Assembly (NCBI GenBank): GCA_038065075.1
Contig: JBBTRQ010000019.1
Location: 9,456-73,455 of the forward strand
Direction of reading: 5' to 3'
DNA from: Patescibacteria group bacterium
Lineage (GTDB): Bacteria > Patescibacteriota > Patescibacteriia > UBA9934 > GWF2-40-263
Length of the DNA: 64,000 bases
This document shows, one piece after another, positions 3,120 to 55,369 of the stretch. The notes beneath the pieces are model-generated. The model did no database searches. It saw only the letters and a list, made by a program, of their open reading frames with translations, and was not told where the DNA came from. Positions within the stretch are counted from its first letter, which is position 1; each line of letters opens with the position of its first letter. Both the position numbers and the translations under genes were made by a program.

Positions 3120-4003
3120 GCCCAGCGGCAAAACTTCTGCGCTGGTATCGACAGCATGGACGTCCCCTGCCGTGGCGACGTACACGAGATTCGTATCGCG
3201 TCTTGGTGAGCGAGATCATGCTCCAGCAGACGCAGGTCGACCGCGTCGTCGATTTCTACAAGCGCTGGCTCAAACTTTTTCCGACGTGGAAGACTCTCGC
3301 GCGTGCGACCAATGCTCAAGTCATCCACGCCTGGGCGGGACTGGGATACAACCGTCGAGCACTCATGTTGCGCGATGTTGCTCGATACGTGGTCGAGCAC
3401 GGAGTTCCTCGCACGCAAGAGGCCTGGCTCGCGATCAAAGGCATTGGGCCGTACACCGCCGCGGCCGTGAGTGCGTTCGCACAGAAACAACGCACGCTCC
3501 CCATCGACACCAATATCCGCCGCGTGCTCGGCCGGTTGTTGCTCGGTAAGCCGTTTGCCACGCTCGCGGACGACGAAAAAATCCGCTCGAAAGCCGACTT
3601 TCTCCCGCGCCGAGGCGCGTACTACGACGTCCCCCAGGCGATCTTCGACCTGGCGACCGCGATCTGCCCCAAGAATCCTGATTGTGCACGATGCCCGTTG
3701 CGCAATGACTGCCCCTCTGCCAAGCTATTCCTGCAGGGTCGCGTAACAATCCCCAAACGCTCCGTCGCCGTCGCCTGTGAACACAAGCACCGCAACAAAC
3801 CCTTTCCCGACCGCATCTACCGCGGGCGGATTCTCAAGCTCGTTCGAGAATGGGGTCAGGTCGGGTTATGTGCTTTTGGACGACTCATTGACCCAGACTT
3901 TGATAAAAAACTCGACCAAAAATGGATCGAGGCGATGGTCGAGAGACTCGTTCACGATGGACTTCTCGAACACAAAGGGAATAAACTCACCCTTCACGCA
4001 TGA
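3116..4003 (+). CDS. mutY: A/G-specific adenine DNA glycosylase (MutY / endonuclease III family, HhH-GPD)
   Basis: 'LPWRRTRDSYRVLVSEIMLQQTQV' helix-hairpin-helix region and a C-x6-C-x2-C-x5-C FeS loop (CPKNPDCARCPLRNDCP). The start overlaps the CYTH stop by 4 nt. Confidence 0.8.
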   Translation: MSPAAKLLRWYRQHGRPLPWRRTRDSYRVLVSEIMLQQTQVDRVVDFYKRWLKLFPTWKTLARATNAQVIHAWAGLGYNRRALMLRDVARYVVEHGVPRTQEAWLAIKGIGPYTAAAVSAFAQKQRTLPIDTNIRRVLGRLLLGKPFATLADDEKIRSKADFLPRRGAYYDVPQAIFDLATAICPKNPDCARCPLRNDCPSAKLFLQGRVTIPKRSVAVACEHKHRNKPFPDRIYRGRILKLVREWGQVGLCAFGRLIDPDFDKKLDQKWIEAMVERLVHDGLLEHKGNKLTLHA

Positions 4004-4930: not shown

Positions 4931-5285
4931 CGACATGGCTCAAAGAGGAAAAAGCCGGATCCCGGACCTGACCCCAAAATCGGCAGGATCAAAAAACCAT
5001 CGGCACATGACCGTTGGTTTTTTGTGACTCCACTGAACTAAATTTGGCTCACGGAAGTCGGGTACTGGTTGCCCAGTACGCAGTTTGGACGGAAATCCAG
5101 TCGGAACCGGAGAATCGTCCTCACGTTGCTGCACCCAGTCCGCCGTCGCTCTAGCGAGCTATGGCGGATTTTCAAGGTTTACCGCGGGGTCCTCGCGTTG
5201 CCTCCGAAGAAACAACGGTTCTAGACCCTAAGCCATTGATTTGCCCAAATTAGTTCCATGGAGCTATTTCTAGTGTAGCAAATTA

Positions 5286-5726
5286 TTATTGGGTGCGCAC
5301 GTACTGATGGCTCGTCAAGGGAATGTAGTGCACCTGTACTTCGTTCTGTGTCTGCTCAAATCCCGCCAGCGCCACGGTCGGCTCGTTCGGACTCGAGAGA
5401 AAGTCCTCAACACGAATCGGCGTTACGTCGATAGACGTGGCTGGAGCTTGCGCGACGGACGTCCTGGAGGAAACCGTCTGCGGTCCAATCTCCGGCTCAA
5501 TCGAAACCTGCGCGGCCATGAGCGCGAACACGCCCACCATCATACCTCCAGCAAAGAGCGGCGCGGTATACCCCATCATCCGTTCCCATTGGCTGGCGCG
5601 GTGCTCAAAAAACCGCGAACACAGAAGACTGCGTCGCAATTCATAGCGATGCTCTACGTCGCCGGGGTGCTCCTGGGAACCCATGACTTGTAGGAGCTCT
5701 TCGATGTTGAGGGACTTGCGGGACAT
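5286..5726 (-). CDS. Putative anti-sigma factor with a single TM segment
   Basis: Lies immediately downstream of, and overlaps, the ECF sigma gene. One hydrophobic helix (MMVGVFALMAAQV). Confidence 0.4.
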   Translation of the reverse strand: MSRKSLNIEELLQVMGSQEHPGDVEHRYELRRSLLCSRFFEHRASQWERMMGYTAPLFAGGMMVGVFALMAAQVSIEPEIGPQTVSSRTSVAQAPATSIDVTPIRVEDFLSSPNEPTVALAGFEQTQNEVQVHYIPLTSHQYVRTQ

Positions 5727-6286: not shown

Positions 6287-6414
6287 AGCTTGTAAGTTAC
6301 AAGTTAGTCGAGTAGCTGACCCATAGCCCATTTATACCATGGGCCAGCAACCCTTTCGACCTTGCACTAGGTAAATCGTAGCACACCTAAAATCGTTGCG
6401 TCTCTCTTTTCAAG

Positions 6415-6443
6415 GAAACAAAAACCCACCAGCGTGTGGTGGG
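6415..6443 (-). terminator. Intrinsic terminator of the high-GC lipoprotein gene
   Basis: CCCACCAGCGTGTGGTGGG hairpin followed by a T-run on the minus strand. Confidence 0.5.
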
Positions 6444-6503: not shown

Positions 6504-8540
6504 TCAGGGCGTGTGCGGGGTGAAGCCACCGAAGGCGAAGACCCCTCCGCCCTTGTACTCACCGTTGGCGAGGAAGGTTCCGCCATCGCAGGTGACGACG
6601 TACTTCCCGCCGACCTGGGGGCGGGAGCCGTTGACGAACGTGCAGTTCGTCGGCTCCGGCGGCGAGACGACCGCGGGGGTCGCGGTGGGCTCGGTCGTGG
6701 GCGCCTCGAGCTCGGCCGGCACCGGGGTCAGCCGGGGCCAGCGGGAGCACTTGGCCGGGAGCTTCTCGCACAGGAGCGCGAGGCTCGGGGCCATGAGATC
6801 GTCGTACTCGGCGTCGGTGTCGGGGTACAGGGTGATCTCGGGCAGTCCGCGCTCACGGCGGAGGCCCTTTGCCTCGACGTTGATGCGCAGAGCGTCTTTC
6901 GCTCTGCCGAACTCGCCCTCGAGCGCACAGTCGTGGCCGTAGTGGGCGTCGAGACTGCGGCGGAACCGCTCGCGCAACTCGTAGCGCAAGCTCTGCTCCT
7001 CTCCCGGCGTCTGTTCGATGCCGAGCTCCGTGCGGATGGCGGCCTCGCGCGAAGCCGAGACCTCACCGCGGGTCAGAAAGTGGAAGATGTACGCGATCTC
7101 CCGGCGGTACTCGTCGTCGGGGAGCTCCTTGTTCCAGGCCTCCCAGGTGTCTTCCATCTGGGTGTTGGCGCCGCCCTGGAGATCCTCCAGGATCAGCTTC
7201 TGGGTTGAGGTGATGGCACCCACGCTCTGGTAGAACGGGAGGCCCAGCGCGCAGAGCCCGAGCTCCCGCTCGAAGTCGAGCGAGCCGTCCGTCCCCGAGC
7301 GATTCGGGAACGTGTCGAGCATCGCGACCCAGAAGGCCGTGAGCTCGCGGTCGTTCATCGCCCGGACGCGTATGAGGTACGAGGTCAGGAGGTTCCTCTC
7401 CGTCTCATTCTCCCACATGTCCGTACTCCAGCCACTGTAGCTGCCGGGGTCGATACCCAGAATCGTGGTCGCGGGCTCGACCTTCTCCTCGCCCGCGACG
7501 GCCACCGGGAACATCTCGTCGATAGCCTGACGGGTGTGCGCGAAGTAGAGCTCGCGCAGAACCTGGTCGGCGCGGATGAGCTGATAGAGCTCGAGCGTGC
7601 CGGCCACCGGGGTCGAATAGCAGCCTTCGCCGCACTCGATCCAGATGAGGACGTTGGCGGCGGGGAGCTTGAGGTAGCGCGCCGCGTACTCGCGAGCCTT
7701 GACCTTGTCGGTCTTCCCGAGGATGGCGATGTCCGCCACGACGACCTCGGGGCCGAAGTACCGGCCCAAGCCGCTGAAGTCGTCCTTCTCCCAGGCGGTC
7801 ACCTCGCGGTCGAGGAGCTCGACCAGGATCGAGACGTCGCCCTTGAGGGCAAGCTCGCGTATCTGGTACGGGCTGAGGATCTCGGAGATCTCCCAGCCGT
7901 GGGTCTGGGCGATGTGCTTGGCGACGTCGATCTTGCCGTTGAGGAAGGCGTACTGGGCGACGTCCTGCGTACGGATCACCTGGTCGGCGCCGACCATCTT
8001 CTTGGTCGCACGATCGAGCGTGGCCAGATCTCCGGTGTGGACGGCGATCATCGCAACCGCCTTCCACTCGCCTTCCTTCTCGAGCTCGGTCGAGCAACGC
8101 TTGGCGTCCTCGAGCCGGCCCAGCACGATCCAAATCTGGGCGGCCTCCCACTCGCGATCCTGCGCCTCCAACGCGAGCGCCTCGTCGGCGCGTGGCGCGG
8201 GGGCGTCGGTGGTGCCGTAGTCGGTGCCGGGGTCGGCGACCTTCGCGGCGTCCCAGATGCTGGGGTCGCCCAGGATCGGATCGGGCTTCGAGCGGTCGAC
8301 GCGGAAGTCTGCGGTGTAGCGCCAGATGTCACGCGGGTGCGGGACGGCGGCGTCTGCCTCGATCTGGGTGGCGATGCCGGCGCGCCAGGCCTCGACGGCC
8401 GCGGCGTCCATGAAGGTCTTGTCGACCTCGGGCTCGGGCTCCGGCAGAGGCGCCTGGGTGGGCGAGGGCGGGTCGCTCTGGGGCTGGGAGCAGCCAAAGA
8501 GGACGACGAAGATGGCCAAAAACAGGTGTCGAAGGTTCAT
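6504..8540 (-). CDS. Lipoprotein of unknown function in a strongly GC-shifted single-gene island
   Basis: Signal peptide plus lipobox (LFLAIFVVLFGCSQ) and a Pro-rich linker. Codons are dominated by G/C at third positions, unlike the neighbours. Antisense ORFs here are GC shadows. Confidence 0.55.
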   Translation of the reverse strand: MNLRHLFLAIFVVLFGCSQPQSDPPSPTQAPLPEPEPEVDKTFMDAAAVEAWRAGIATQIEADAAVPHPRDIWRYTADFRVDRSKPDPILGDPSIWDAAKVADPGTDYGTTDAPAPRADEALALEAQDREWEAAQIWIVLGRLEDAKRCSTELEKEGEWKAVAMIAVHTGDLATLDRATKKMVGADQVIRTQDVAQYAFLNGKIDVAKHIAQTHGWEISEILSPYQIRELALKGDVSILVELLDREVTAWEKDDFSGLGRYFGPEVVVADIAILGKTDKVKAREYAARYLKLPAANVLIWIECGEGCYSTPVAGTLELYQLIRADQVLRELYFAHTRQAIDEMFPVAVAGEEKVEPATTILGIDPGSYSGWSTDMWENETERNLLTSYLIRVRAMNDRELTAFWVAMLDTFPNRSGTDGSLDFERELGLCALGLPFYQSVGAITSTQKLILEDLQGGANTQMEDTWEAWNKELPDDEYRREIAYIFHFLTRGEVSASREAAIRTELGIEQTPGEEQSLRYELRERFRRSLDAHYGHDCALEGEFGRAKDALRINVEAKGLRRERGLPEITLYPDTDAEYDDLMAPSLALLCEKLPAKCSRWPRLTPVPAELEAPTTEPTATPAVVSPPEPTNCTFVNGSRPQVGGKYVVTCDGGTFLANGEYKGGGVFAFGGFTPHTP

Positions 8541-8657
8541 CGCTGGTCTCCGGAGGGTTACGGGGCGGGAAATGAACACAACACGCAGGCAGGAAGCCCG
8601 CATGAAGGAAACAAAAATACCCTATTTTGGGCATTTTGTCAATGTTTGGACATCAAA

Positions 8658-20643: not shown

Positions 20644-23477
<2,834 letters not shown>

Positions 23478-23606
23478 ACAGGACGATTATACCAAAAAAC
23501 GAGGCAGAGTGCCTCGTTTTGACGCCCCTTAAAGGGGCTGTGAAGTAGATTATTCACAGGGCCTTTCCTGCCCGCCATAGCTTCAGCGACGGCGGGAGGC
23601 CCGTTT

Positions 23607-24520: not shown

Positions 24521-25625
24521 CCGCCACGCTCATGCGCGGGCCGATTTCTTCCAGGACGCTTGCGAGATCTTGTGGAAAGACGACGCGTGCCCAGGGGTCG
24601 CCACGGTAGACGTTGAGGTTGAGCGTCTGCGCCAAATACTCCGTCACGCGCGGCAAGTGAGATGAGCCACCCGTCAAAATAATCTTCTCCACCTTCTTGA
24701 TCAGAGCGAGCTCCATGCCTGCGTACAACTGGAACGCAAATCGAATCTCGTTGATGAGCGGAAGCATGAGCACCTCTAACACCTTTGGAAGATCGCCCGT
24801 GAGTCCCGAGCCTGTCGCTGAAGCGGTGCCCAGGTCGCGCTTGATACGCTCGGCATCCTCTTCTGACAAAGACATCTGTTGCATCACCGCGCGCGTGACG
24901 GTGTCCCCTCCCAACTGGATCGAACGCGACACAAACGGAATCCCCTTCTCCACGATCATGATCGTCGTGCGCTGTGAGCCGATATCAATGACCATGATGG
25001 CCCCTTTGTCTTTTCCAACGAGCGCGCGAACAAGCGCGAGCGATTCCGTGTCGATGGCTTGAAGGTTGAGCTTCGCCGCTTTAAAAATTTCGATGTACTT
25101 CTGGATGAACGACTTGGCCGACCCCGTGACCATCGCGCGAAACTGCTTTTGCTTCCCCTTTTCCATCTCCCCACCCGCCATAGCTTTAGCGACGGCGGGT
25201 TCCCCCTTTTTTCCTTTCTCGGGTTTCTTTTCCTCGTCCAAATACGTCGTCTGGATAATCATCTCGGAAAGGGGCAGTGGCGCGAGCTTCCCAACCTCTG
25301 CGTCCACGGCAGCCTGTTTCGCCCGCGCGTCTTTTCCGTCGGTGAGTGAAAGAATCGTCGCAAACACTCGCGAGGTCGGAAGCGCGGCCATCGCGGAAGT
25401 GGATTTGGTTCCGGCTTCCTTGCACACGCGCGCGAGCAACTCGCCGGTTCGCTTAGGCTGGTCAAACAAAGACTCTCCTGCTTCTTCAACGGGAATCTCC
25501 GCGTATCCGTACGTCATCAAAATGGGCCGACCCTTCTTTGCCTCAAACTCGACGACCTTAATACTGCTAGCGCCGATGTCGACCCCCAAAAAACTTTTTG
25601 GCTGTTTCTTTCCGAACAAGCCCAT
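24492..25625 (-). CDS. pilM: Type IV pilus assembly ATPase-fold protein PilM (actin/FtsA-like)
   Basis: 'FLGVDIGASSIKVVEF' N-terminal actin-fold motif. Contains an in-frame repeat-family-B insertion (GEPAVAKAMAGGE). Confidence 0.75.
   Translation of the reverse strand: MGLFGKKQPKSFLGVDIGASSIKVVEFEAKKGRPILMTYGYAEIPVEEAGESLFDQPKRTGELLARVCKEAGTKSTSAMAALPTSRVFATILSLTDGKDARAKQAAVDAEVGKLAPLPLSEMIIQTTYLDEEKKPEKGKKGEPAVAKAMAGGEMEKGKQKQFRAMVTGSAKSFIQKYIEIFKAAKLNLQAIDTESLALVRALVGKDKGAIMVIDIGSQRTTIMIVEKGIPFVSRSIQLGGDTVTRAVMQQMSLSEEDAERIKRDLGTASATGSGLTGDLPKVLEVLMLPLINEIRFAFQLYAGMELALIKKVEKIILTGGSSHLPRVTEYLAQTLNLNVYRGDPWARVVFPQDLASVLEEIGPRMSVAVGLAMREIE
25174..25199. repeat. Repeat family B copy, inside pilM and in frame
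   Basis: CCCGCCATAGCTTTAGCGACGGCGGG. Family consensus is CCCGCCGTCGCT-N-AGCTATGGCGGG. Other copies at 5140-5167, 16122-16148, 23571-23596, 52585-52610, 53247-53278, 54923-54952. Confidence 0.65.
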
Positions 25626-26052: not shown

Positions 26053-26065
26053 AAATTGCCCCCCG

Positions 26066-42461: not shown

Positions 42462-43496
42462 CTAGTCCCTCCTCTGCTTAATAGCTGTTCTTCGTGATGG
42501 CACAATAACAACGGGGTAGTCAGTTAATGCCCGAGCCTCGTCTACCACACCCCGTTCTAATATGACATCCTCCGGGGATATAAAATAGACAAAACTCGTC
42601 TTGTACGGTTCGGCAGGATTTTTTCCGGCGTAAAGACAGAGTCGCAAATAGGTTTCCAAAAAATGTTTTGGGTCGTATGACGGTTCTGTATACTCGACTG
42701 GATTGCGCCCTCCATCACCCAAAGCACTATCATTCGACAACTGTGCAGACCTAAGTTCTACTCGGCCGTCTTGTTGAATAATTTCGTACACGTCATGAGC
42801 GGGCCCTCGTCCCTTAACGCCGAGATCGTTTAGCACGTTCGTAACGCTATCACTACTAACGGCACCTCTAAAATACAAAACAAAGCGACTCCCCTCGAAA
42901 AGCTTAAATGAAGCTGGCAATGCCTTCAGAGTAGCAAGCGTGTTTAGCATCTCTTCTAACTTACCTGAACGCAAGGCATTCAATAGGTCTTTAGATTCAA
43001 TGTAGTATTTGTAATCCTGAGGCACGCTAGGCACCTCAGACTGTTTTTCAACCTCATAGTAACGGCCAAACTCACTATCATGAAAATGATAATCCCTAAC
43101 AAAGTCTTTATAAAGCTGGCCTATCTCTTTTCGCTCAGCTGAAGTCAGTTCTTCCAGACTTTCCAAACTATGTCGTTGTAAAAAATCTTGATGAAGCCAC
43201 CTAGGCAGTGCAATCTTTGGTGCGGGCCCCCGAAAAAAAGGAGTGTGACGAATGTAAACTCCACCAATAAAACCCGTATTTGCTAACTGGCTTACGAAGC
43301 GTTCAATCTTCGGATCTTTAATTGCCTCGTCTGGATCCGCATCGAGCAAAGAAAGAAAATGGGCTACTTCGCGTGCCGATTCGTTAAATTGTTCAGGAAA
43401 CTCAACATGATTTTCTGTCTCAATCTTCAGTCCACGATTCTCTGAGCCGTCTTCTCTAGACGACCTCGATTCATATTCTTTATGTCTCCGTAACAT
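42462..43496 (-). CDS. Hypothetical protein (344 aa) in an AT-shifted segment next to tRNA-Gln
   Basis: No recognisable domain. Composition differs from its neighbours. Confidence 0.4.
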   Translation of the reverse strand: MLRRHKEYESRSSREDGSENRGLKIETENHVEFPEQFNESAREVAHFLSLLDADPDEAIKDPKIERFVSQLANTGFIGGVYIRHTPFFRGPAPKIALPRWLHQDFLQRHSLESLEELTSAERKEIGQLYKDFVRDYHFHDSEFGRYYEVEKQSEVPSVPQDYKYYIESKDLLNALRSGKLEEMLNTLATLKALPASFKLFEGSRFVLYFRGAVSSDSVTNVLNDLGVKGRGPAHDVYEIIQQDGRVELRSAQLSNDSALGDGGRNPVEYTEPSYDPKHFLETYLRLCLYAGKNPAEPYKTSFVYFISPEDVILERGVVDEARALTDYPVVIVPSRRTAIKQRRD

Positions 43497-43636: not shown

Positions 43637-43710
43637 TGGTTCCCGAGCAGGGATTCGAACCCCGATTAGCTGATTCAGAGTCAGCTGTCCTGCCCTTAGA
43701 CGACTCGGGA
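43637..43710 (-). tRNA. tRNA-Gln (anticodon CTG), CCA encoded
   Basis: Reverse complement has acceptor TCCCGAG/CTCGGGA, anticodon loop CTCTGAA, T-loop GGTTCGAATCC, and a 3' ACCA. Confidence 0.75.
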
Positions 43711-45957: not shown

Positions 45958-45966
45958 CCTCCGGTT

Positions 45967-46000
45967 CCCCTCCTTTTCAAGGAGGGGCTAGGGGTGGTTA
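45967..46000. repeat. Repeat family A copy in the 5' leader of 45339-45957
   Basis: CCCCTCCTTTTCAAGGAGGGGCTAGGGGTGGTTA. Confidence 0.65.
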
Positions 46001-46005
46001 AAATT

Positions 46006-49251: not shown

Positions 49252-49626
49252 TCAGCTGCGTGGGTTCTTGAGGAAGCGGCGGATCAGCACCACCGACCAG
49301 ATGGTCGGGACCATGCTGGCGAACATGCCGCTGGCCTGCATCCAGTCGTCGTGCTGGACGCCGTTGAGCGCGAGGCTCACCTGGATGAACAGGAAGAGCC
49401 CGTACATCTGCAGGGAGTGGCCATCTCCGCGTCCGGACTTCCAGAGCTGGAAGGTCTGGGTCGCCAGGCCGTAGGCGTTGAGCCAGCCGCCGATGAAGAC
49501 GATGGCCGTGACGAGGATCCAGAACAACTCTCCCATGAGGATGTTCTGGTGCCAAGCGATCCAGAGGGCTCCTACCAAAATTCCGATGACAAATCCGATG
49601 AGATTTTGTCTGATGAAGAGCTTCAC
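49252..49626 (-). CDS. SemiSWEET/PQ-loop-like small membrane protein (GTG start behind AAGGAG)
   Basis: 3 TM helices and 'TFQLWKSGRGDGHSLQMYGL' PQ-loop-like motif. Confidence 0.35.
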   Translation of the reverse strand: MKLFIRQNLIGFVIGILVGALWIAWHQNILMGELFWILVTAIVFIGGWLNAYGLATQTFQLWKSGRGDGHSLQMYGLFLFIQVSLALNGVQHDDWMQASGMFASMVPTIWSVVLIRRFLKNPRS

Positions 49627-49639
49627 GACGTACTCCTTT

Positions 49640-49939
49640 TCAATAGGTGATGTACTGCCAGACGAGGACGATGCTGGCCAACAGGCCCAGCACGTCCGCG
49701 GGAAGCAGGTACCAGGCGCGGGCGCTGGCCTGGTACGGGATGCGCACGGCGTAGAGCACGAGCGCGACGACGATGAGCACGGGGTCGATCCCGCACTCGT
49801 GCGCCTTCCAGTTCTTGATGATCTGGGACGGGAAGCCCAGGAGAACCATCCCGATCCCACAGGCGAGCGTCAGCTTGCCGAGCCGAGCCTTCCAGGGCTC
49901 GAGCCGCAGAGCGATCTGCTCGGCGAGGTTCTTGGCCAT
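49640..49939 (-). CDS. SemiSWEET/PQ-loop-like small membrane protein
   Basis: 'GFPSQIIKNWKAHECGIDP' PQ-loop motif and 3 TM helices. Start at MAKNLAEQ. Confidence 0.4.
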   Translation of the reverse strand: MAKNLAEQIALRLEPWKARLGKLTLACGIGMVLLGFPSQIIKNWKAHECGIDPVLIVVALVLYAVRIPYQASARAWYLLPADVLGLLASIVLVWQYITY

Positions 49940-50101
49940 GGGGACTCCGGGTTGAGGGGTTCGACGACTTCGCGGATCGATGGATCGAAACGCAAATCGA
50001 CCTTGGATAATACACGAAAAAGCCGAAAAGTCAAGAGAAATGGCACGATCCAAACCAAAAACCAGCCGTTTCTGGCTGGTTCTGTGGATGTCGGTAGTCG
50101 A

Positions 50102-52502: not shown

Positions 52503-52646
52503 ATCCTCCTAAAGGTGCCTCGTCATTGCGAGGGAGCGTAGCGACCGAAGCAATCTTTCATCGAAGGATTGCTTCGCTGGCGCTCCCGCCGTCGCTAAAG
52601 CTATGGCGGGCAGGCGCAATGACACAGACTTGATGGAAACAGTATA

Positions 52647-53243
52647 TCACCTGGTCGTACCGCGAGCGAGAACGCGGTCGAGAAGATCCGACTCATCTGC
52701 TCTGAGAGTCGCAAGCGCGATCTGAACAGAACCACCGAAGTCGATGTCTCTACCCTCAAGCTGTGCCAGCGCCACGGCCGTCGCCCGATGGTGACCTTCA
52801 ATACAGACAATGCGATCAGTTCCTTCGAGTCGCAGGCCGAAAAAGGTCGTCGATGGTGGGAAGTGTGCCATGAGAGAAGCAACTTTCCCGTGCGCATGAA
52901 GAGGAACAGCTTGTTCGGGCACGCGGACGAGGTCGGCAAACGTATGACGATTAGGCGCCGGGAGTTTTGATTGCCAGCCGGAGAATGGTCCAACGAGCAT
53001 GGCAGGAATCTCTTTCATGGGGTCAGTGAACTCGAAAAGATTCCACTCTCTCGCTGACGCATCGATCTGGTCTCCCGTAAACCGCCGCCACGATTCCCAA
53101 TCCGGCCAGCCCTTTAAGACCGTCGCACAGTGAACCCAGCCTGGATCACTTCCCTCGCGCTGTTTCCAATCCTGAAATATTTCTTCCCACGTTATGGGAC
53201 GAATGAGGTTGAGCATAACGGTTCGATCATAGCATGAAACCAA
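52647..53243 (-). CDS. Hypothetical protein
   Basis: ORF only. Confidence 0.3.
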   Translation of the reverse strand: MVSCYDRTVMLNLIRPITWEEIFQDWKQREGSDPGWVHCATVLKGWPDWESWRRFTGDQIDASAREWNLFEFTDPMKEIPAMLVGPFSGWQSKLPAPNRHTFADLVRVPEQAVPLHAHGKVASLMAHFPPSTTFFGLRLEGTDRIVCIEGHHRATAVALAQLEGRDIDFGGSVQIALATLRADESDLLDRVLARGTTR

Positions 53244-53392
53244 AAACCCGCCGTCGCTCCATGAGGAGCTATGGCGGGCGGACAGCCCTCTTCAGGCTGC
53301 TTTGGTGGTGCTCTGACTATTTGACCGCCTCTTGGGAGTATGCCTTACTAGGGTCGCGCGTCGATTCAGGCGTGTGACAACCGGAGAGTAAC

Positions 53393-54850
53393 GTGAGGAC
53401 TTCCCTCGTTCGATTCAATTCGGAAAACGTGCCCGTGCACACGACGGACTACCGCTTCCGGCGCTTCTTCAACTGGTTCCCGCTCGGGCTCGGCTACGCG
53501 AGCCTGATGTTCATGCGCTACAGCCTGAACCCGGCCAAGAGCGCGCTGGGCGACAAGCTCATGGACATCAAGCAGTTCGGCTTCATCTTCGGGGTGGGCG
53601 CCTTCCTCTACTTCGTCGGCATGATGATCAACGGCCCGCTGGTCGACCGCAAGGGCGGCCGCTGGGGCATGATCACTGGTGTGACGGGAGCGGGTCTGGC
53701 GAACCTGGTGATGGGCGCCGTGGTCTACGGCGTGATGGTGCGCGGCTGGACGGTGTCGCTGTTCTGGTCGTTGCTCATCCTCTACGGTGTCAACATGTTC
53801 TTCCAGAGCCTGGGGGCCATGTCGATCGTGACCACGAAGATGCCGTGGTTCCATGTGCGCGAGCGCGGAACCTTCGGCTTCATCTTCGGGGTGATGATCA
53901 GCCTGGGGATCTACTTCGCCTTCGACTGGGGCTATGCGATCCGCACGGTCACGCGCGCTTCCGGCGTCGTCCTGGAAAACCTCGGTCTGACCGAGACGGC
54001 CTTCTTCCACCTGCTGGGCGCGGCCAACTCCGGCATCGACGCCAACTGGTGGCTGTTCCTCTTCCCGCCGCTCTTCGCGATCCCGTGGCTGGTGGCCATG
54101 GTGATCTGGCTCCGCAACCTGCCCTCCGATGCCGGATTCGCCAACTTCGAGACCGGCGACCAGCACGTCGCGGACCGCACGCTCGGCCTGTGGGAGATGA
54201 TCAAGACAATCGCCCACGATCCGCGTCACCGCGTCCTGCTCGTCATCTGCTTGATCGAGTTCTGCTCGGGCACGATCCGCAACGGCGTGTTCCAGTACTA
54301 CCCGCAGTTCGCGAGCTCGGTCGGGTTCTACAAGGACTTCTTCCTGACCGCCAACTGGGGCCTGTGCCTGATGATCTGCGGGATCACCGGCGGCTTCATG
54401 ACCGGGTGGATCTCGGACAGGTTCTTCAACTCCCGCCGCGGCCCCATGGTCCTGATCTCCTACGGCCTGATGATCGCGGCGGTCATCATGATCCTCTCCT
54501 CGCTGGGCAACAACGCGCTGGGCGTCGGATCGATGATCACCGCCGTGGGCGTGCTGATCGTGGCCACCTGCATCATCGGCGTGCACGGCATCCTCTCGGG
54601 AACGGCCGCCGGCGACTTCTCCGGCACGAAGAACACGGGCAAGGCCGTGGGCATCGTGGACGGGTGCGTCTACCTCGGCACCGGCCTGCACTCGATCCTC
54701 ATGGGCTATGCGCTCTCCACCGGCGAAGCGGCCAAGAACCCCGCGACCTGGATCGGTTGGCCCGTCGCCATCCTGCCCTTCGTGGTGATCGGCGGCCTCC
54801 TCGCCTGGAAGATCCGCCACGCCTTCCCGACGGCTTCGCGCGCCCACTAG
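53393..54850 (+). CDS. MFS-type transporter in a very GC-rich single-gene island
   Basis: ~12 predicted TM helices. Strongly GC-shifted. Flanked by direct copies of repeat family B at 53236-53290 and 54912-54960. Confidence 0.5.
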   Translation: MRTSLVRFNSENVPVHTTDYRFRRFFNWFPLGLGYASLMFMRYSLNPAKSALGDKLMDIKQFGFIFGVGAFLYFVGMMINGPLVDRKGGRWGMITGVTGAGLANLVMGAVVYGVMVRGWTVSLFWSLLILYGVNMFFQSLGAMSIVTTKMPWFHVRERGTFGFIFGVMISLGIYFAFDWGYAIRTVTRASGVVLENLGLTETAFFHLLGAANSGIDANWWLFLFPPLFAIPWLVAMVIWLRNLPSDAGFANFETGDQHVADRTLGLWEMIKTIAHDPRHRVLLVICLIEFCSGTIRNGVFQYYPQFASSVGFYKDFFLTANWGLCLMICGITGGFMTGWISDRFFNSRRGPMVLISYGLMIAAVIMILSSLGNNALGVGSMITAVGVLIVATCIIGVHGILSGTAAGDFSGTKNTGKAVGIVDGCVYLGTGLHSILMGYALSTGEAAKNPATWIGWPVAILPFVVIGGLLAWKIRHAFPTASRAH

Positions 54851-55000
54851 CGCAAGGATCGATCGCTCCCTCACGCCGCCTCCACTACGCACAGGGGCGG
54901 TCTTTATTTTGCAAACCAAAAACCCGCCGTCGCTCTAGCGAGCTATGGCGGGCGGGCAGCTTACTCGGCGCAGGCTAAAGCCTGCGGCTACCTGGGAGGA

Positions 55001-55369
55001 CTATTCCGCCATGGCGAGGGCGGGTTCGCCACCAGAGATATAGTTTGGCATCTCGGCCTCGACGAAGCCCAACATCTTCACGGACTTCGACACATGGTCG
55101 AGTGATTGGCTCTTGCGCGTCTCAAGTTCAAGGTTCTGATTCATGAGCGAAAGTTCATTGAGCTGTGTCTCGAGCTCGCGGATTTGATAGCCCTGCGAGA
55201 TCGACGCGTTCACCTGAATGATGTACGCCACAACCATGAGGGCGACGATCGCGAGGGAAACAATGTTTAACGCAACAACATGATTGCCGATCCACACACG
55301 CACGCTGATGCGGCGGGTGAGTTCATGCGTTGGCGAAAAAACAGCCGTTTGTATTGCAACTGGGGACAT
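55001..55369 (-). CDS. ftsL: FtsL-like cell-division protein
   Basis: Single TM helix plus coiled coil. Sits directly downstream of rsmH, as in dcw clusters. Confidence 0.45.
   Translation of the reverse strand: MSPVAIQTAVFSPTHELTRRISVRVWIGNHVVALNIVSLAIVALMVVAYIIQVNASISQGYQIRELETQLNELSLMNQNLELETRKSQSLDHVSKSVKMLGFVEAEMPNYISGGEPALAMAE

Follow-up and report, generated by a model that had tools for sequence, protein, structure and literature searches.

A single-gene transporter islet between copies of a predicted ftsL terminator in a Patescibacteria genome

How does a bacterium with a tiny genome gain a transporter gene, and what trace does the gain leave in its DNA? The question is raised by a stretch of 64,000 nt from a Patescibacteria group bacterium (GenBank assembly GCA_038065075.1, contig JBBTRQ010000019.1, positions 9,456 to 73,455 of the forward strand), here called the window, in which a GC-rich gene for a transporter of the major facilitator superfamily (MFS) lies between direct repeats beside the mraZ-rsmH-ftsL operon. 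Patescibacteria depend on imported metabolites, and an importer of the organophosphate type would therefore probably be an adaptive gain; the route by which they acquire genes is poorly known. An earlier note on this DNA had taken the gene for a foreign one, truly integrated, and had suggested capture or recombination mediated by the repeats, which it read as copies of a small palindrome native to this genome (family B). In this study, the gene was found to form a single-gene accessory islet in antisense orientation, with ftsL on one side and the composite terminator of the mraZ-rsmH-ftsL operon on the other. The insertion is placed precisely by an orthologous single-copy terminator and by empty sites in relatives. 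Loci from other genomes are designated by L numbers, and the window locus by WIN.

The direct repeats lie at 53237-53286 and 54913-54960, one base from where the earlier note had put them. Their outer parts are nearly the same (53237-53259 equals 54913-54935 at 23 of 23 positions; 53266-53286 matches 54940-54960 at 20 of 21), and the 8-10 nt between the arms differ (CCATGAGGAG vs C--TAGCGAG). Both repeats and the element that stands after ftsL in the related locus L072 consist of hairpins followed by UUUUUG(G)UUU, with fold z-scores from -3.2 to -4.6, as expected of intrinsic terminators, and in both L072 and the window ftsL is immediately followed by this element. L072 contains a single copy (AAAGCAGCCTGAAGAGGGCTG, family B and TTTTTGTTT), which aligns to the left repeat. 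Comparison of the left repeat (fold of -42.8 kcal/mol, z = -4.3) with L072 6785-6852 revealed a shared architecture, a similar loop and a hairpin 1 identical at 21 of 21 positions. This same composite structure marks the left repeat as the predicted orthologue of the ftsL terminator, which now lies on the side of the transporter gene far from ftsL. The right, ftsL-proximal repeat was called terminator-like by a terminator scanner (-44.2 kcal/mol, z = -3.2). In its family-B core it agrees with the copy at 5140-5167 at all 28 nt, and its hairpin 1' is a different, perfect hairpin that aligns only partly with the ancestral hairpin 1; the X-R' junction reads CCGCAGGCTTTAGCCTGCGCCGAGTAAGCTGCCCGCC. 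Thus, the repeats are two copies of a predicted ftsL terminator.

Plain versions of this terminator in relatives consist of a short hairpin and a T-run. In L084 it is GCAGCC-CAAAAC-GGCTG-TTTTTGGTTT, and L079, L075, L081 and L154 are similar. In L072-74 a family-B palindrome is placed between the stem and the T-run (AAAGCAGCCTGAAGAGGGCTG-CCCGCCCGCC..GGCGGG-TTTTTGTTT). In both window repeats, as in L072, the family-B arms are accompanied by a 10-nt tail, TTTTTGGTTT, and by the 8-nt flank CGGRCAGC, which carries a CCCG extension (GCTG-YCCG). The tail and the flank are on no other family-B copy, so the two flanking copies are related by alignment, as the earlier note had supposed. The combination of tail, flank and arms, found in both repeats and L072 alone, indicates that the repeats are true paralogues or alleles and not independent insertions of family B. 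Within the 64 kb, the tail is confined to three sites of this 5-kb hot spot (50052, 53237 and 54913), always on the minus strand.

Homology of the left flank to the L072 ftsL terminator stops at 53303 (..GGCTGCTTT), and the right repeat begins at 54913. The segment between them, which is missing at the orthologous site in L072-L085 and L154, carries a promoter-like region, the coding sequence and a weak terminator of its own (Table 1). The upstream regions of WIN, L005, L006 and L007 align to the consensus TTGACA-N17-(G/A)TTAACT, which is also present in L086. A consensus promoter scanner called nothing at the transporter upstream region; the promoter is thus a putative one, read from conservation only. 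The fold of the weak terminator is barely better than that of shuffled sequences (z = -1.9). Neither the leader nor the repeats had an Rfam match at E <= 1, and a known RNA family or riboswitch was rejected at these positions.

A search with RsmH was performed to find relatives (84-89% identity), and their contigs were read for the content after ftsL. From its RsmH homologues, the genome belongs among Candidatus Uhrbacteria-like lineages. The synteny of mraZ, rsmH and the 122-aa gene is found in all relatives, and ftsL is the conserved right border of a variable interval. In the orientation mraZ > rsmH > ftsL, the operon is followed by a terminator and cysS in L154; by a terminator, a 185-aa gene and cysS in L079/L080; by a terminator, a 186-aa gene and a sigma factor gene in L075-78 and L085; by genes of 130, 203 and 187 aa in L081/82; by a methyltransferase gene and genes of 164, 189 and 185 aa in L072-74; and by another gene in L084. 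In the window, it is followed by the transporter gene (on the opposite strand), the 189-aa gene, a 184-aa gene and cysS. The transporter gene stands after ftsL in none of the six related lineages. Empty sites, for which the earlier note had proposed to look, are provided by L079, L080, L154, L075-78 and L085, where a plain terminator separates ftsL from the next conserved gene; in L072-74 and L081-82 the site is occupied by other cargo. Since at least five different contents occur after ftsL, this interval is an insertion hot spot. Homologues of the 189-aa gene, the left neighbour of the insertion, were found in L072 (74%) and L081 (64%) only. The wider region is also mosaic among relatives, genes for a 207-aa protein and a CBU_0592 protein being variably present.

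The same scar was then sought in other genomes that carry the transporter gene. In L003/L005, a Parcubacteria metagenome-assembled genome (MAG) with a 74% identical transporter, a repeat of 91 nt stands on each side of the gene, its copies agreeing at 90 of 91 positions; the L005 repeat comprises the last 19 nt of a convergent peptidase gene, its terminator and another hairpin, and its junctions show microhomologies of 4-5 nt (TTGA, the start of the -35 box of the cassette, and TTTTT). In L086 (72% identity) the gene lies between 33-nt terminator copies (32/33), and these are the only two copies in the contig. The repeats of WIN, L005 and L086 are unrelated in sequence, and those of L005 and L086 contain no family B. 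The ends of the insert also vary among the three loci in their distance from the promoter-like TTGACA-N17-TTAACT and from the stop codon. Flank-to-flank alignment scores were calculated for the 166 genes of the Patescibacteria loci that encode 150 aa or more, and seven of these genes scored 18 or more: three transporters, three tandem paralogues and one gene between elements resembling repetitive extragenic palindromic (REP) sequences. Such scores were thus reached at 3 of 10 transporter loci vs 4 of 159 other genes (Fisher p = 0.005, and p = 0.0006 without the tandem paralogues). Flank repeats were looked for at 61 genome and 42 metagenome loci in all, L086 coming from a separate contig look-up. 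The remaining 59 genome loci scored 17 or less (cross-locus controls, 9.9 +/- 1.3), and no further clear case beyond WIN, L005 and L086 was found among the 61 genome and 42 metagenome loci. The metagenome loci added two cases, one borderline and the other of a different kind; L115 is borderline (score 16 vs a control maximum of 14), and L135, with an Elusimicrobiota-type homologue, has arrays of the heptamer CTAA[C/T/A]GA on both sides (~3830-3870 and ~5630-5670), a different kind of repeat. The recurrence of a duplicated terminator around one gene clade in three genomes is the sole feature that sets this locus apart from an ordinary islet.

The gene itself is intact. The 485-aa open reading frame (ORF) at 53393-54850(+) is uninterrupted and starts with GTG; this start is favoured over the annotated later one because the N-terminus, LVRFNSENVPVHT, aligns with homologues. 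A Pfam MFS_1 match of 67.8 bits (cut-off 33.4) aligns residues 32-431 with profile positions 2-344 of 347 and spans both halves of six transmembrane (TM) segments, which places the protein in the MFS. A crude hydropathy scan showed about 10-12 hydrophobic segments, in keeping with the roughly 12 of the earlier note. A profile of the 23 closest transporter sequences matched GlpT (1pw4) at E = 1.1e-14 and the glucose-6-phosphate exchanger SLC37A4 at E = 4.2e-5; with the single transporter sequence as query, no relative was found in the PDB. GlpT binds its substrate with two arginines, R45 in TM1 and R269 in TM7. R42 and R296 of the window transporter are invariant in the 23 sequences and align with these two. 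The profile similarity to solved members and the presence of both arginines indicate membership of the organophosphate:phosphate antiporter (OPA) family (GlpT/UhpT/SLC37). The NCBIfam equivalogs for GlpT, UhpC and PgtP did not match, with scores of 24-80 bits vs cut-offs of 408-750 (TIGR00881, 79.5/407.8; NF008661, 55/564; TIGR00712, 53/633; NF047787, 24/750). Scores so far under the cut-offs lead us to classify the protein as a predicted OPA-like antiporter that is an orthologue of none of these three. Most likely, it carries an organophosphate across the membrane in exchange for phosphate. It resembles the GlpT/UhpT/PgtP/SLC37 antiporters (TC 2.A.1.4) in fold family, profile matches and substrate arginines, and differs from them in its low NCBIfam scores and in the need for a family profile to reach a solved structure. 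Directly upstream of the transporter gene in L086 lies a gene of the inositol-monophosphatase family (245-1150, Pfam Inositol_P), whose terminator is the duplicated element; this adjacency may hint at a phosphorylated substrate, or may be due to chance.

The base composition of the gene is as unusual as the earlier note had stated. The GC content at first, second and third codon positions is 0.54, 0.45 and 0.94 (GC3), and the third-position value exceeds that of 45 other long ORFs of the window (0.65 +/- 0.07, median 0.65) with z = 3.9. The window as a whole has a GC content of 0.556, and the immediate neighbours of the gene 0.51-0.56. The gene is also richer in GC than its flanks by 0.05-0.13 in 8 of 8 Patescibacteria loci, and equal to them in Elusimicrobiota. 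The aberrant GC3, the absence from the orthologous site and the homologues in other Patescibacteria together characterize a horizontally acquired islet. An identical protein (with the annotated later start) is encoded on contig CAYHTY010000002.1 of a Patescibacteria MAG, GCA_964359885.1, and the same protein occurs on four contigs of 50-200 kb (NCBI/ENA/Logan) with identical neighbours. The integration that the earlier note had argued for is thus borne out, the more so as a 50-nt repeat is shorter than usual assembly k-mers. It could still be held that nothing was inserted, the gene being a native one with codon bias or the arrangement an assembly chimera at the repeat: the sequences are MAGs, and the transporter gene is GC3-rich relative to the host in every Patescibacteria genome examined, which could reflect selection at the level of the gene. 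This explanation is barely credible in view of the six related lineages that lack the gene at the orthologous site, the arrangement repeated on four contigs, and repeats (33-91 nt) shorter than the final k-mers of three assemblies made with different assemblers. Other GC3-rich ORFs of the window are likewise missing from relatives.

The earlier note had expected donors among high-GC Actinobacteria or Proteobacteria. A donor of this kind was rejected, as both the list of homologues and the tree point to Patescibacteria. The closest homologues belong to Patescibacteria (71-74% amino acid identity) and sit in gene neighbourhoods different from that of the window. Under ~52% identity, hundreds of proteins of Elusimicrobiota and others follow, labelled 'OPA family glycerol-3-phosphate transporter-like' in JGI. 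In a neighbour-joining tree, all Patescibacteria copies fall into one clade, sister to a clade dominated by Elusimicrobiota. Together with the GC excess over the flanks in the eight Patescibacteria loci, this single clade makes another, GC-richer Patescibacterium the likely source. 'Gammaproteobacteria' labels on L007 and L023 belong to MAGs, and in L007 both the GC content of the flanks (0.54) and the conserved promoter-like region upstream agree with those of the Patescibacteria loci. The transporter frame of L007 (4989-6451) is interrupted, with an in-frame ORF at 4989-5291 only and a database protein (P0008) covering 81%; it is either a pseudogene or an assembly error. One kilobase upstream of it, 77-nt palindromic elements bracket an 840-nt ORF (3160-3999). 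No relative of the transporter was found in IMG/VR, and a phage or virus as the vector was rejected for want of an IMG/VR contig with one.

Family B is a real repeat family, present at the positions listed in the earlier note, including one in frame in pilM. Its core, CCGCCGTCGCT..GGCGG, gave 10 strand-matches at seven sites, one of them at 53249-53280; shuffled sequences gave 1.27 +/- 1.19, and none reached 10. Most of the window copies are at terminators. The copy in pilM lies inside an uninterrupted 390-aa ORF with a PilM_2 match (E = 2.7e-35), at about residues 156-165, just before the main PilM_2 stretch (172-388). A larger palindrome of 105 nt (52520-52625) encloses the copy at 52585, and 52515-52630 folds with -53.7 kcal/mol (z = -4.5). 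This palindrome belongs to a second family of larger nested elements bounded by GTCATTGCGAGG...CTCGCAATGAC, of which related ones start at 26065, 49093 and 63123; similar elements lie upstream of the 184-187-aa gene in relatives (L075 6425-6470, L081 7055-7175). A third family, the 39-nt hairpin GCCCCCCTCCTTTTCAAGGAGGGGTTGGGGGTGGTTATG, has three copies with 85-100% identity (22169-22207, 45964-46002 and 62571-62609).

The earlier note had also regarded family B as a native element of this genome. It is not private to it: relatives carry the exact 24-nt core at other positions, the core is also present in 10 IMG/VR contigs (L144-L153) with GC contents of 0.35-0.58, and family B stands at different positions after ftsL in L072 and L081. 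Being dispersed, intergenic or in frame, and at non-orthologous positions, it behaves like a widespread selfish palindrome that may spread between genomes. It resembles the REP sequences and bacterial interspersed mosaic elements (BIME) of enterobacteria and the Rickettsia palindromic elements (RPE) in being a short, GC-rich, imperfect palindrome, sometimes nested and once in frame; the exact core common to contigs of such different GC content is unlike them and suggests spread between genomes. A transposase of the RAYT type was not seen, although no search aimed at one was made. In L145, L147, L150 and L152 the 126 nt around the core are identical and apparently in coding sequence, and in L153 a second, similar palindrome, TCCTCCGCCGCTGAAGCTTCGGAGGA, precedes the core.

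Such an element might have entered two similar terminators independently, at the junction of stem and T-tail, in which case the repeats would be unrelated to the insertion. Its dispersal and mobile look, its differing positions after ftsL in L072 and L081, its presence in pilM and in IMG/VR contigs, the terminator with the same tail and no family B at 50052, and the right core equal to the 5140 copy are all compatible with this. It is nonetheless a very unlikely explanation, as the GCTG-YCCG extension and the CGGRCAGC flank common to both copies and L072 are missing from all other copies, and the repeats of L005 and L086, which lack family B, would be left unexplained. For the same reason, capture by family B, as proposed in the earlier note, is not the most economical explanation: the duplicated unit is the whole ftsL terminator. 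The other half of that proposal, recombination at the terminator, is a live alternative.

On these grounds, we consider that the islet was acquired from a GC-richer Patescibacterium and joined at the ftsL terminator with duplication of the target, and assign this reading a probability of roughly 0.55. A fragment without defined ends would have entered the host and been joined by illegitimate recombination or template switching at the hairpin-forming terminator, and the joining would have duplicated the target over a length of ~50-70 nt at this locus, 91 nt in L005 and 33 nt in L086. A terminator would then stand on each side, and ftsL and the convergent transporter gene would be insulated from each other. 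The ftsL-proximal copy may later have been remodelled, with a new hairpin 1' and a family-B loop converted to the 5140 variant. Direct repeats should also permit loss by recombination, and re-insertion of the excised circle into strains with a single terminator. A defined transposon is argued against by insert ends that differ and lack terminal inverted repeats. An insertion sequence (IS) or transposon was rejected also on the grounds that the transporter is the sole ORF and that the repeats measure 33, ~50 and 91 nt.

Several observations weigh against target duplication. The window copies do not form a clean duplication, as an indel and several substitutions set the loops apart between outer parts that agree at 43 of 44 positions, and the window thus fits the process less cleanly than L005 and L086 do. 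Hairpin 1 is well conserved in the left copy only, which a recent simple duplication would not predict. The ancestral AAAGCAGCC leader lies beside the ftsL-distal copy, where a simple staggered-cut model predicts the proximal one. Only three cases are available, all from one subclade, and a repeat is missing at seven other Patescibacteria loci. Empty sites were not obtained for L005 or L086; the peptidase next to the L005 gene has a single other homologue, whose identity of 58% is too distant for such a comparison. No enzyme was identified, and none of the homologues, the nearest of which diverge by 26-28% in amino acid sequence, represents the actual donor.

We infer the mechanism from these comparisons, and a recombination between two lineages is of nearly equal standing, if a less probable account. 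By a Campbell-type or homology-facilitated event, the repeats would be the ftsL terminators of two relatives, one resident and the other imported with the transporter islet or circle. Long identical arms (23 and 20/21 nt) with a differing loop and hairpin 1 are what diverged alleles would show, and the order X-R, insert, Y-R fits a circle carrying Y-R that integrated into a resident X-R. The neighbourhood is mosaic, with variable presence of the 207-aa and CBU_0592 genes, and the type IV pilus genes and the VirD4/TrwB-like protein encoded by the host make DNA uptake plausible. What tells against it, without separating it from target duplication, is that an X-type terminator was seen in none of the 8 lineages examined, and that protein identities to seven relatives show no shift between the two sides of the insert. 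The repeats of L005 and L086 are unique local sequences and near-identical, so that the donor would have to be conspecific; the origin of the first repeat-flanked islet is left unexplained as well.

An integrase acting in trans is a decidedly improbable explanation. The repeats would then be the attL and attR sites of an integrase-less satellite islet, similar to a cis-mobilizable element (CIME), carrying a copy of its target. The inclusion of the last 19 nt of the peptidase gene and its terminator in the L005 repeat recalls att sites at gene 3' ends, and a gene for a large serine recombinase lies 4.8 kb from the L003 transporter; serine recombinases, however, do not make long repeats. Among the called genes of the window, no recombinase family was found within ~6 kb on either side of the insert, as an integrase-mediated island would have required. 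Moreover, the repeats are unrelated in the three genomes, and the ends of the insert differ relative to promoter and terminator. Elsewhere in the window, a 57-nt direct repeat (12995-13051 and 15046-15102, 81%) surrounds a low-GC (0.46) 2-kb islet (13052-15045) with three small minus-strand ORFs, and would be the kind of structure that an integrase in trans leaves. This repeat joins a terminator hairpin to the 3' end of the minus-strand tRNA-Ser gene (15078-15165), of which the left copy is a decayed form, and the islet looks like an att-type integration at a tRNA gene; its 250-aa ORF had no Pfam match, and no integrase was seen.

Going further than target duplication, one might propose a structure-directed integration in Patescibacteria, by which promoter-bearing single-gene fragments are joined in a staggered manner at the feet of palindromes and duplicate the terminator, so that the islets would be self-insulated, excisable and mobile. 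We regard this as unlikely. If the scar proves general, it would offer a simple signature for recent insertions in MAGs, and terminator hairpins would be entry points of foreign DNA; if not, the locus is an ordinary single-gene islet in a hot spot.

Table 1. Coordinates of the transporter islet, its flanking elements and related features of the window
Feature	Position	Strand	Basis or remarks
189-aa gene, left neighbour of insertion, variably present	52647..53216	-	No Pfam/NCBIfam match
Left repeat, predicted composite intrinsic terminator: hairpin 1 (GCAGCC-UGAAGAG-GGCUG), family-B hairpin, UUUUUGGUUU	53237..53303	-	Fold, L072 alignment
Inserted segment: promoter-like region, coding sequence, own weak terminator	53304..54912	+	Between the two terminator copies
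Promoter-like TTGACC, 18-nt spacer, TTACTA	53321..53350	+	Conservation among upstream regions of homologues
MFS / OPA-like transporter coding sequence	53393..54850	+	485 aa, GC 0.644, GC3 0.94
Weak transporter terminator (putative): CCGCC..GGCGG, then TCTTTATTTT	54876..54910	+	Read from sequence
Right repeat, ftsL-proximal, predicted terminator: hairpin 1' (GCAGGC-UUUA-GCCUGC), family-B hairpin B', UUUUUGGUUU	54913..54985	-	Terminator scanner, fold
ftsL-like gene, 122 aa, last of mraZ-rsmH-ftsL operon	55001..55369	-	Pfam DivIC 21 bits, below cut-off; synteny
Third terminator with UUUUUGGUUU tail: CCAGCC-AGAAAC-GGCUGG, no family-B insert	50052..50085	-	Resembles ancestral ftsL terminator
Family-B copies elsewhere	5140-5167, 16123-16150, 23568-23599, 25171-25198, ~52585-52613		

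Other parts of the window also depart from its average. Two minus-strand ORFs of 124 and 99 aa (49252-49626 and 49640-49939), neither with a Pfam match, have GC3 values of 0.87 and 0.93. They share with a 106-aa ORF, from which the terminator at 50052-50085 (TTTTTGGTTT) separates them, the interval between cysS and a 174-aa gene, where L079 and L081 have nothing. A third GC3-rich ORF (6504-8603(-), 699 aa, GC 0.675, GC3 0.90) matched no Pfam or NCBIfam model. On either side of it, terminators with different hairpins carry an identical 13-nt tail, AAGGAAACAAAAA (+ strand), at 6412-6424 and 8605-8617, which is a shorter version of the pattern at the transporter. Between 30308 and 36605, three copies of a ~1.1-kb gene (83-91% over 300-nt blocks) with shared 100-nt flanks form an array around a 988-aa ORF, and the GC content of this region, 0.60-0.63, is above that of the rest of the window. 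A compositional outlier in the other direction is a 344-aa ORF at 42462-43496(-) (GC 0.445, GC3 0.39) beside tRNA-Gln (43637-43710(-)).

Several known systems provide comparisons for the islet. The duplication of a repeat in CRISPR spacer acquisition and casposon integration is formally like the structure-directed integration considered above; the 1.6-kb cargo and the duplications of 33-91 nt are unlike it. Integron cassettes and clusters of attC sites lacking integron integrases (CALINs) also consist of single ORFs bounded by similar imperfect palindromes that fold as hairpins, whereas here the gene has its own putative promoter, the palindromes are predicted terminators with U-tails, and there is no array. 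On inspection, RYYYAAC/GTTRRRY core sites were missing from all three repeat types, and integron attC sites were rejected on this ground and on that of the promoter-like region inside the cassette. Islets with att repeats and CIMEs share with this locus direct repeats of tens of nucleotides around atypical DNA, and the 3' end of a gene in the L005 repeat; they differ in the integrase, absent here in and beside the islet (called genes within ~6 kb), and in that the present repeats are unrelated between genomes and their inserts variable at the ends. The minimal mobile elements (MMEs) of Neisseria are reportedly whole-gene cassettes between conserved genes, which differ from strain to strain and are exchanged by transformation and flanking homology. 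Duplicated flanking terminators are no hallmark of MMEs, and the cargo here is compositionally foreign and not an allele of a species pool. The likeness lies in the conserved borders (mraZ-rsmH-ftsL and, opposite, the 184-aa gene with cysS), at least five contents, the absence of mobility genes and the type IV pilus genes of the host. In its conserved flanks with different cassettes the interval after ftsL thus resembles MMEs, and its cassettes may likewise move by transformation and homologous recombination.

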